From the IMG/VR virus record IMGVR_UViG_2579779007_000005: 12,909 nucleotides of DNA. One strand, 5' to 3'. The DNA comes from a virus. Lineage: Duplodnaviria > Heunggongvirae > Uroviricota > Caudoviricetes. Below the pieces are notes generated by a model. The model searched no databases. It was not told the DNA's origin and was given only the letters and a program-made list of their open reading frames with translations. The position numbers and the translations under genes are program-made. This document shows, in pieces, positions 8,073 through 9,310 of this stretch (positions are counted from its first letter, which is position 1; every line of letters begins with the position of its first letter).

Positions 8073-8093
8073 GGCCTGGATTTTACCAGGCCT
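8073..8093. terminator. Bidirectional rho-independent terminator between the convergent 82-aa gene and the 168-aa cargo gene
   Basis: Stem GGCCTGG (8073-8079), loop ATTTTAC, stem CCAGGCC (8087-8093), flanked by AAAAAAA upstream and TTTATTATTTT downstream on the plus strand. Confidence 0.55.
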
Positions 8094-8101
8094 TTATTAT
8101 T

Positions 8102-8350
8102 TTACCGTTTCACGGGATCGCGCATTCTGCGCCTTATTTTCCACAGATATTCGATCATTGCTTCCACCTGCTCACGGTTGGTTGCGAAAATTTCCCCGGT
8201 CAGTGAGCTACGCAGAAAATCATGATGATCCACAAAAAACAACGCATCGGAAGAAAGCAGACGGCGATATTTTTTTGCTGTCATGGTTTCCAGATCATCA
8301 AAATCATGAAACTTTTTATGTTGCTGGACTTCTTCAAATGTCACTGGCAT
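8102..8350 (-). CDS. Hypothetical protein (82 aa)
   Basis: ATG 8350-8348 preceded by a G-rich SD (minus strand CAGGGGGGGG); stop at 8102, followed by a hairpin terminator at 8073-8093. Confidence 0.5.
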   Translation of the reverse strand: MPVTFEEVQQHKKFHDFDDLETMTAKKYRRLLSSDALFFVDHHDFLRSSLTGEIFATNREQVEAMIEYLWKIRRRMRDPVKR

Positions 8351-8367
8351 GCCCCCCCCTGTTGTCG

Positions 8368-8793
8368 CTAAAACGGTATGTTGTCCCCGTACGGATCATC
8401 GTGCTGACCCGTCTGCTGTTTTGCCCTGTTCAGTGCGTCAGTCGCCTGGTTCTGCTGGCCTTTTTTGCCGCCTGGTCGCACCGTTCGCGCACTGATTACG
8501 CTGTCTGCGATAACCTGCCAGCCTTGCCGAGTTTCGCCGTTCTGGCCTGTCCACTGACTTACCTGCATGTTACCCGCCACGCTCACCAGTTCGCCTTTGT
8601 GGTGTTTTGCCAGTGCTTCGGCCTGTCTGCCAAACGCCAGAACAGAAAGCCACATCGTCACCGCACCATCATCAGCCTGACTGCATGGCAGGGGTACTGC
8701 CATACTTACCATCGCCATTTGTGTACCCTTGCTGGTGGTCTTTAACTGCGGGTCATTTGCCAGCCGCCCGTAAGCGGCTATCTGTGCTGTCAT
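8368..8793 (-). CDS. ssb: Single-stranded DNA-binding protein (SSB)-like, 141 aa
   Basis: ATG 8793-8791 with GGAGGG SD. OB-fold-like N-terminal segment (IAAYGRLANDPQL...WLSVLAFGRQAEALAKHHKGELVSVAGNMQVSQWTGQNGETRQGWQVIAD), a Gly/Gln-rich linker, and a C-terminal ...DDPYGDNIPF resembling the SSB acidic DDDIPF tip. Confidence 0.65.
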   Translation of the reverse strand: MTAQIAAYGRLANDPQLKTTSKGTQMAMVSMAVPLPCSQADDGAVTMWLSVLAFGRQAEALAKHHKGELVSVAGNMQVSQWTGQNGETRQGWQVIADSVISARTVRPGGKKGQQNQATDALNRAKQQTGQHDDPYGDNIPF

Positions 8794-9035
8794 GATTCCA
8801 TCCCTCCGGTGTTAACGTTGATGGTTGTCACCTGTTCCGCTTCGGCAATCTCCCGCTCTGTCAACGTGGCAAAATTTGCCGCCGCCGTGGTCATTAATGC
8901 GCTTATCAGTTCGGGATGTGCTTTCGCGTATCCTTCCCCGGCGTTGCGGTCGATGATTTTTATCGACACCCTTAACCAGTGTTCCGTCAAATCAAGAGCG
9001 TGCGATTGTGATTTTTTTGTGTGCTTCGCTGTCAT
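8790..9035 (-). CDS. Hypothetical protein (81 aa)
   Basis: ATG 9035-9033; its stop overlaps the SSB-like ATG (8793) in an ATGA arrangement, implying translational coupling. Confidence 0.5.
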   Translation of the reverse strand: MTAKHTKKSQSHALDLTEHWLRVSIKIIDRNAGEGYAKAHPELISALMTTAAANFATLTEREIAEAEQVTTINVNTGGMES

Positions 9036-9080: not shown

Positions 9081-9310
9081 CTTCACCTGTTCACCTTTTG
9101 ATATTTTCTCTTTTAATTCATAATGTTAATTGGTGAACAGTTTCACAAAAACTATTCACCAACTGTTCACCACTGTTCACCCTTGAAGCTCAATAAACAA
9201 TCAAAAAGGTGAACAGTGAATAGTTTGGTGAACAGTTCATAAATAACTGTTCACCCTATAATATACTGATATAAAAGATATTTATGACAGGGTGAACAGT
9301 GGTGAACAGT
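9081..9310. repeat. Iteron array, candidate origin of replication
   Basis: Nine perfect copies of the 9-mer GGTGAACAG or its complement CTGTTCACC: plus-strand CTGTTCACC at 9087, 9163, 9173 and 9247; GGTGAACAG at 9132, 9208, 9227, 9291 and 9301. Degenerate copies at 9081, 9152 and 9217. AT-rich spacers (for example 9256-9290) separate them. The array sits directly downstream of the primase/helicase stop. Confidence 0.6.

Follow-up and report, generated by a model that had tools for sequence, protein, structure and literature searches.

The 141-aa gene described here encodes a true but divergent bacterial-type SSB, which probably works as an auxiliary replication factor of the E. coli island that carries it, helpful but not essential. 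Its gene directly follows the replicase, a putative iteron origin and a small gene, p81. Compared across related islands, it is a conserved hinge, on one side of which the replicase can be exchanged and on the other the packaging module. The window, i.e., the whole stretch of DNA that was analyzed (12,909 nt), was recognized from its genes as a capsid-forming PICI (cf-PICI) of E. coli.

The minus strand of the window carries, in order, alpA, an icd-like region, a 106-aa gene (p106), a DUF4222 gene, the primase-helicase gene, an AT-rich gap, p81, the SSB gene, and an 82-aa gene (p82). Beyond p82 lies a convergent 168-aa gene (p168) on the plus strand, followed by genes for an HK97-type capsid (PF05065, 6e-60), a protease, a portal, a head-tail connector, an HNH protein, terS, terL, and a DUF3892 protein. 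The p168 gene, which adjoins the SSB region, is AT-rich and resembles an inserted accessory gene. Capsid-forming PICIs are elements of 10-18 kb with int, alpA, a replication module, and their own genes from capsid to terL, and without tail or lysis genes (10.1101/2025.02.11.637232). The window contains alpA, the primase, capsid, protease, portal, connector, HNH, terS, and terL, and the integrase is found in a 98.7% identical copy of the island in E. coli B1W1. There, a tyrosine integrase is added, the order reads int-alpA-primase-...-capsid-protease-portal-HNH-terS-terL, and the island, flanked by clpS and cspD, lacks genes for tail and lysis. An earlier note on this DNA, made from the sequence alone, had called the SSB satellite-encoded, and the complete int-to-terL island between clpS and cspD bears this out. 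The sizes and positions it gave for the 81-, 141-, and 82-aa minus-strand genes were likewise correct (Table 1). Searches with PADLOC (E<=0.1) returned no match for p81, SSB, p82, p168, or p106, NCBIfam contained nothing for p81, p82, or p168, and Rfam nothing within the window. At the DNA level, the p81-SSB-p82 region had no match among deposited phages.

Table 1. Features of the replication region of the island, in window coordinates.
Feature	Position	Strand	Basis or remark
Primase-helicase (D5_N / DUF5906 / Pox_D5), 610 aa	9323..11155	-	Pfam, PHROG
Origin-like region	9087..9309	both orientations	ten GGTGAACAG iterons, in the 287-nt gap between primase and p81
p81 (phrog_1231), 81 aa	8790..9035	-	PHROG; stop overlaps SSB start (ATGA)
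SSB, 141 aa	8368..8793	-	PF00436, TIGR00621, PDB SSBs
SSB, OB core (residues ~4-109)	~8784-8467	-	
SSB, linker (~27-35 aa)		-	
SSB, tip (GDNIPF)	8388-8371	-	
p82 (phrog_1957), 82 aa	8102..8350	-	PHROG; 17 nt past the SSB stop, G8 tract upstream
Bidirectional intrinsic terminator	8073..8092	both	between convergent p82 and p168

The assignment of the 141-aa protein is carried by several profile and structure matches. The protein scored above the cut-offs of both Pfam PF00436 (E=1.4e-16, 60.8 bits, cut-off 26) and TIGR00621 (64.6 bits, cut-off 53.95), and residues 4-109 matched 27 solved SSB structures (PDB chains; best E=3e-12). The absence of an OB fold had been named in the earlier note as one outcome that would speak against its reading; the fold follows from homology to these solved structures, and the OB-like core and GDNIPF tip that it described are both in place. 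By every sequence criterion applied, the protein belongs to the SSB family. Identity to E. coli SSB (EcSSB) is 26%. Three of the four aromatic residues that stack on ssDNA are retained, as the invariant W48, F54, and W81 align with W54, F60, and W88 of EcSSB, and the counterpart of W40 is an invariant cysteine, Cys37. H55 of EcSSB, a position relevant to tetramer stability, is replaced by leucine, a change that speaks neither for nor against a tetramer. By homology, the protein would form tetramers and bind ssDNA; given the W40-to-Cys and H55-to-Leu replacements and a linker of about half the length, its binding modes and cooperativity may differ from those of EcSSB.

The C-terminus of the protein reads ...HDDPYGDNIPF. 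Within the tip, D137, I139, and F141 never vary in this lineage, P140 is kept in at least 90% of the sequences, and position 138 varies between N, G, D, and E, so that the tips mostly follow the pattern [G/D/E/S]D[N/G/D/E]IPF. From this conservation pattern, GDNIPF is an ordinary host-type SSB-Ct (D-x-I-P-F) and no special variant. A GGAGGG Shine-Dalgarno sequence is located 9 nt upstream of the SSB start codon. The dN/dS of the gene is 0.05-0.12, indicating strong and uniform purifying selection. Together with the invariant functional residues, this low value means that selection acts on the SSB protein, beyond the DNA.

The replicase that precedes these genes matched the Pfam families D5_N (1.5e-13), Pox_D5 (2.9e-12), and DUF5906 (1.4e-10), as well as phrog_864, a DNA primase (4e-192), and its counterpart in the B1W1 copy is named "DNA primase family protein" by PGAP. 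The gap between this gene and p81 has a GC content of 0.32 (32%) and contains ten GGTGAACAG iterons, nine of them exact, in two sets (9087-9181 and 9208-9309) around AT-rich spacers. The whole window contained 15 near-matches to this motif against 2.8 expected, a number reached in 0 of 200 shuffles. Origins of Gram-negative PICIs have the same layout as this gap (PMC6092414). The order expected of a PICI replicon, pri/rep and then an iteron origin, is found in the window with both its iterons and AT-rich spacers, and we consider the region a putative origin; the description of the SSB as lying after the origin, also made in the earlier note, agrees with this. In related islands whose replicase is of another kind, the iterons found at this position are different ones. 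As the island encodes only a primase-helicase, and no polymerase, clamp, or clamp loader, it needs the host replisome.

In the window, the stop codon of p81 overlaps the SSB start by 4 nt (TCAT at 8790-8793, ATGA on the coding strand). All but one of 59 related loci (58/59) share this overlap, which had been pointed out before, and the SSB gene lies directly 3' of p81 in 69 of 73 p81 loci. p81 had no Pfam match, and was assigned to phrog_1231 (7.7e-47, profile positions 3-82 of 83). A profile search recovered 643 representative clusters that share the motif ID..FG.GYAK.HPEL.AAFM.TAA.DF, and all 51 distant relatives taken from it (51/51) also matched phrog_1231. The AF2 model of p81 is a helical hairpin with a pLDDT of 67, for which Foldseek found no PDB structure with an E value under 5, and its dN/dS is 0.15-0.25. 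Searches of deposited phages gave no protein match for p81, with one Pseudomonas phage matching a distant relative.

The presence of p81 varies with the type of replicase: it was found with 31 of 32 D5-type primases, 19 of 23 RepA-type helicases, and 7 of 38 DUF927 proteins. In islands of Klebsiella, Buttiauxella, and Rahnella, its overlapping position is taken by an unrelated gene of 132-142 aa. Among distant viral contigs, 27 of 28 p81-family loci had no SSB within 5 kb, which rules out p81 as a dedicated SSB partner. At all six distant loci that were scanned, the gene comes after a primase-helicase and an origin-sized gap, with DUF927+Toprim, DUF5906, Prim-Pol+VapE, or Toprim+D5_N architectures of the replicase. 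Its link to the replicase type, and its position after primase-helicases that have no SSB nearby, both show that p81 belongs with the replicase and origin as one unit. In three of the six scanned loci, antiterminator Q comes after the p81-like gene.

The third gene, p82, belongs elsewhere. It was assigned to phrog_1957 (5e-37), has a dN/dS of 0.12, and was present in 43 of the 44 cf-PICI loci selected by their capsid, with or without an SSB. By best-hit labels, p82 had seemed to be absent from lambda-type loci (0/34); this was contradicted by a relative, 39-46% identical, in the small gene upstream of the capsid of one lambda-type PICI (L018). p82 is therefore a member of a wider gene family located upstream of the capsid, and its distribution shows that it goes together with the head operon of cf-PICIs. 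What lies between the SSB gene and p82 is variable: nothing in the window, and PerC or a ProQ/FinO protein in other islands. p82 itself is not PerC, to which it showed no similarity (E=2), and a match to the Imm15 family of Pfam was dismissed, as it fell under the cut-off (18 bits vs 22.9). An AF2 model built on a 10-sequence alignment reached a pLDDT of 50.6, too low for a fold search, and deposited phages contained no protein match for p82.

Between p82 and p168, the terminator folds into a stem of 7 bp, 6 of them G-C, and has T-runs on both strands (-18.9 kcal/mol, z = -4.4; equal folding in 0 of 200 shuffles). No terminator was found on the coding strand in the stretch from the primase to p82, and p82 would be the last gene of a primase-p81-SSB-p82 transcription unit in the window. 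The three small genes had been proposed to form a module. This part of the earlier note did not hold, since p81 goes with the replicase and origin, p82 goes with the cf-PICI head operon, and the slot between SSB and p82 is variable.

About a third of the complete E. coli genomes (about 1788 of 5426) contained relatives of the SSB, with up to six copies per genome, and the lineage also occurs in Klebsiella, Leclercia, Buttiauxella, Pantoea, Rahnella, Rosenbergiella, and others. The genes of the window were mapped onto 98 loci found via the SSB, 79 via p81, and 44 usable loci via the capsid; many of these loci are closely related and not independent, and counts taken from them are descriptive. 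In the capsid-based set, whose selection is not biased towards the SSB, 38 of the 44 cf-PICI loci carried it. In E. coli, Klebsiella, Leclercia, Buttiauxella, and others, the replicase and iteron origin were never followed by more than one gene before the SSB, whatever the iteron sequence. Deposited phages contained nothing closer than about 31% identity, the best matches being full-length at about 28-31%, which points to a lineage specific to islands. The plasmid records examined that contain an SSB of about 65% identity turned out to be PICI or cf-PICI circles, at least one of which included flanking chromosomal genes. All neighborhoods examined were PICI-type islands without conjugation genes, and the SSB was not found in the leading region of a conjugative plasmid.

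Within these islands, the SSB assorts separately from its surroundings. Identical SSB proteins were found with three unrelated replicase families (D5-type, RepA-type, and DUF927-type) and with HK97-type, lambda-type, or other downstream modules, and the same protein was seen in every combination of the three replicases and three packaging types. The SSB gene and the 3' part of p81 are among the few segments that can be aligned between dissimilar islands, at 80-86% DNA identity, and homology breakpoints recur inside p81, at window positions 8989 and 8972. The alleles of the SSB are associated somewhat more closely with the packaging module downstream than with the replicase. This association could be due to physical linkage, and is not predicted by a role in replication only.

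Some islands do without the SSB. Two intact cf-PICIs (L278 and L280) share with the window their primase (99% identity) and their origin (95%). In both, a p82-like gene follows immediately on the first ~21 codons of p81, and a reading frame resembling an SSB was found nowhere in the sequence examined. A third locus (L295), with a RepA-type helicase, likewise passes from the start of p81 into a p82-like gene without an SSB. For the related island EcCICFT073, rep and ori are sufficient for plasmid maintenance in DH5alpha (PMC6092414). The auxiliary status of the SSB fits both the sufficiency of rep and ori in EcCICFT073 and the existence of intact SSB-less cf-PICIs. The island SSB is dispensable, and its role is independent of the replicase type. 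If the host SSB suffices and SSB-less islands exist, this also counts against the proposed role, in so far as it gives the island SSB no evident selective benefit.

A sequence of events for such an auxiliary role can be proposed. Upon induction of the island by a helper phage, a unidirectional operon from alpA to the primase would be transcribed through the origin into p81, SSB, and p82, until transcription halts at the terminator at 8073-8092. The primase-helicase would open the iteron origin, and the SSB, whose synthesis would be tied to that of p81 by the ATGA overlap and would occur only after induction, would coat the single strands exposed there with its OB fold. Its D-x-I-P-F tip would recruit host SSB-interacting proteins that are not encoded by the island, such as Pol III (through chi), PriA, and others. 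A private SSB would provide extra SSB capacity at the time when helper and island replicate together. We infer the recruitment of partners, the co-transcription, and the benefit under SSB limitation, and treat SSB limitation during induction as an assumption.

In a bolder version of this role, which we consider unlikely, the SSB would be an adaptor that lets D5-, RepA-, and DUF927-type primase-helicases use the host Pol III without DnaB, DnaC, or DnaG, with the tip perhaps also engaging recombination proteins of the helper, and p81 serving as an origin-proximal cofactor. If true, satellites of enterobacteria would exchange their replicases and head modules around the SSB as the one invariant "socket", and p81 (phrog_1231) would be a widespread, unrecognized replication cofactor of primase-helicase replicons.

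The tip has also been read as a hub for hijacking or interference, which would capture proteins of replication and recombination, from host or helper, on behalf of the island, or would starve the helper of them and lower its replication. The conserved tip is indeed a docking site for many partners (PMC10164576, PMC7145534), phage SSBs coordinate with phage annealases via their C-termini (PMC11846896), and lambdoid helpers encode Red-type recombinases, with bet and exo seen in a CFT073 prophage. However, SSBs bind DNA without sequence specificity and the island SSB alone therefore cannot steer partners to island DNA, and the identity of SSBs that serve three unrelated replicase families excludes replicase-specific targeting. 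The tip, moreover, is host-like rather than specialized. In EcCICFT073, which carries an orthologous p81-SSB pair, deletion of rpp (c1503) alone restores lambda plaquing nearly to the island-free level; the single-gene screen of that island covered only c1499-c1503, so that the SSB was never expressed alone there (PMC6739421). The prototype cf-PICI EcCIEDL933, in which carriage of the SSB is unconfirmed, does not block its helpers, and PADLOC, as noted, did not recognize the SSB. The proposal in the earlier note that the SSB redirects host or helper proteins, or interferes with the helper, finds no support in these results; the unrelated replicases served by identical SSBs, the host-type tip, and the rpp result argue against it, and we regard it as quite improbable. 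By analogy with the cooperation between SSB tail and annealase in staphylococcal phages (PMC11846896), a minor role of the SSB with helper recombinases is possible.

Another reading starts from the hinge itself, and holds that the SSB persists chiefly as a stretch of DNA homology for recombination, with the protein being secondary, or that it aids recombination or circularization together with helper annealases. The alignable SSB and 3' p81 segment, the recurrent breakpoints, and the occurrence of one SSB protein across all combinations of replicase and packaging type would be in line with this. Yet the low dN/dS and invariant functional residues speak for selection on the protein, a hinge role would be a consequence of conservation and not its cause, and the island encodes no recombinase, which leaves this explanation with little probability. 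Least probable of all is a mainly protective or counter-defence role, in which the SSB shields island ssDNA or cos ends from nucleases, or acts as a decoy or trigger for host systems that sense foreign SSBs: PICIs are known to carry accessory and defence genes, p168 nearby looks like an inserted accessory gene, and the SSB lineage is specific to islands, but neither the SSB nor p81, p82, or p168 matched PADLOC, the SSB sits in the conserved replication zone outside the variable accessory slots, its post-origin position is kept across genera, and its strong and uniform purifying selection is unlike the diversifying pattern common for arms-race genes.

As for the auxiliary replication SSB that we favor, the finding is already known in kind, as the gene already has the name "single-stranded DNA-binding protein" in RefSeq and "Primase, SSB and DUF5906", which colocalize with mapped origins, have been listed as replication genes of Gram-negative PICIs (PMC10111431). 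A search of the PICI and satellite literature found no functional test of the SSB, and the cf-PICI and satellite-survey literature, as far as accessible, contained no discussion of it. The SSB is an ordinary feature, and the mechanism set out above is plausible. The new elements are descriptive, namely that p81, SSB, and p82 assort separately, that the SSB is a conserved hinge, that the p81 family is broad, and that SSB-less islands exist in nature. The p81 family is large and uncharacterized, and follows units of primase-helicase and origin in viral contigs and satellites alike. The SSB-less islands with the same replicase are ready-made controls, and an answer to why satellites so often keep a private SSB would be modestly informative on the competition for resources between helper and satellite.

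Compared with E. coli SSB (1EYG, 1EQQ), the island SSB has the same single OB fold of similar length, the counterparts of W54, F60, and W88, and a flexible tail with an acidic I-P-F tip. It differs in its overall length (141 vs 178 aa) and low identity, in a linker of about half the length that is not rich in Gly, Gln, and Pro, in an L23 loop that is three residues shorter, in the Cys and Leu at the positions of W40 and H55, and in its tip (G-D-N-I-P-F vs D-D-D-I-P-F). Also, it is encoded by an island and presumably expressed only after induction. The island EcCICFT073 has an SSB of the same lineage in the same synteny, and shares a primase, a 288-nt origin gap, and a p81 homolog (83%) that overlaps an SSB (66%, tip GDDIPF) by 4 nt; downstream, it carries PerC and a lambda-type capsid, a decoration protein, and rpp, whereas the window has an HK97 head module with p82.

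Among plasmid-borne SSBs, those of the F ssb type are similarly auxiliary proteins on a mobile element, non-essential since the host SSB can substitute for them, and equipped with a host-compatible tip. F-type SSBs are close to the host SSB, in contrast to the roughly 26% identity of the island SSB. Unlike the SSBs of conjugative leading regions, the island SSB has no psiB or ardA neighbors, and the island has no conjugation genes. The SSB of the staphylococcal phage 80alpha, which acts with the Sak annealase (PMC11846896), is comparable as an SSB of a mobile element whose C-terminal tail contacts partners. The SSBs of temperate phages differ from the island SSB, which has no adjacent recombinase and whose coupling is to a unit of replicase and origin, not to a recombination module.

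DNA homology between the islands breaks off repeatedly at window positions 8972-8989, inside the gene for p81, the 81-aa protein encoded directly upstream of the SSB gene, at about codons 15 to 21. The end point lies at 8989 for three of the related island loci (L018, L101, and L020) and at 8972 for a fourth, L278. As these breakpoints recur, and the first ~15 residues of p81 differ between islands in step with the replicase and the origin, the data suggest that 8972-8989 is a preferred recombination junction.

Three apparently intact cf-PICIs (L278, L280, and L295) lack both p81 and the SSB. The primases of L278 and L280 are 99% identical to that of the window, and the origin of L278 is 95% identical. 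In both loci, homology to the window stops at ~8972, with a gene resembling that of p82 (39% identical) immediately beyond this point. These SSB-less islands are useful natural controls. In islands of Buttiauxella, Rahnella, and Klebsiella, p81 is replaced by a second, unrelated protein family of 132-142 aa, for which no Pfam match was found and whose gene overlaps the start of the SSB gene (see table).

The ribosome-binding region of p82, the 82-aa protein encoded after the SSB, (window 8351-8367) is formed by a run of 8 G residues on the coding strand, located 1 base 5' of the ATG. Across the four loci in which the SSB and p82 genes are adjacent, this run reads G8, G6, G5, or GAGGGG, and such variation could tune p82 translation.

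Convergent with p82 lies the gene for p168, a 168-aa protein, which looks like an accessory gene inserted between the replication and head operons. Its GC content is 36-38%, against ~50-55% in the adjoining genes, and only 14 of the 44 related cf-PICIs carry it; on Klebsiella plasmids, DNA of ~78% identity is present. The protein ends in a hydrophobic C-terminal tail (VASIVGAGASALIGLL), and searches against Pfam and PADLOC returned no matches.

Coordinates of features in the window and related loci
Feature	Position	Strand	Remarks
Long mechanical ORF, 306 aa	11756-12676	-	
Long mechanical ORF, 224 aa	8071-8745	+	
p168, 168 aa	7560-8066	+ (opposite to SSB/p82)	phrog_5789; terminator at 8073-8092 alongside
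p81-replacing gene, 132-142 aa	L008:9576-10004; L014:9606-10004; L102:7194-7592		4-nt overlap with SSB start
ProQ/FinO-family gene	L002:10462-10998; L003:10453-10923		directly after SSB
PerC-family gene	L018:10636-10908; L101:9415-9696; L014:10474-10698; L258:11960-12208		after SSB, before capsid genes

The two long mechanical ORFs of the window probably do not represent genes. Where the 306-aa ORF would lie, the PGAP annotation of L001, a near-identical copy of the island, instead has small hypotheticals along with an Icd-like gene of 67 aa and a YlcI/YnfO gene; in the region of the 224-aa ORF, the SSB and p82 are its only calls. In L101 (CP088587.1, 32.5 kb), deposited as a plasmid, a complete cf-PICI is flanked by pntB and mdtJI, which are chromosomal genes. 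The record probably represents a piece of chromosome that was circularised or mis-assembled, rather than a plasmid.

In many related islands from several genera, the SSB gene is directly followed by a gene for a ProQ/FinO-family protein of 156-180 aa (PF04352, E=9.6e-25), one copy of which contains FinO_N; in ~15 E. coli cf-PICI loci, this gene lies between those of the SSB and p82. An RNA chaperone is a repeated neighbour of the satellite SSB. The slot 3' of the SSB, ahead of the capsid genes, often holds a PerC-family transcriptional activator, which is absent from the window and present in the known PICI EcCICFT073; activation of the LEE pathogenicity island by some of the PerC homologues of PICIs is noted in PMC6092414.
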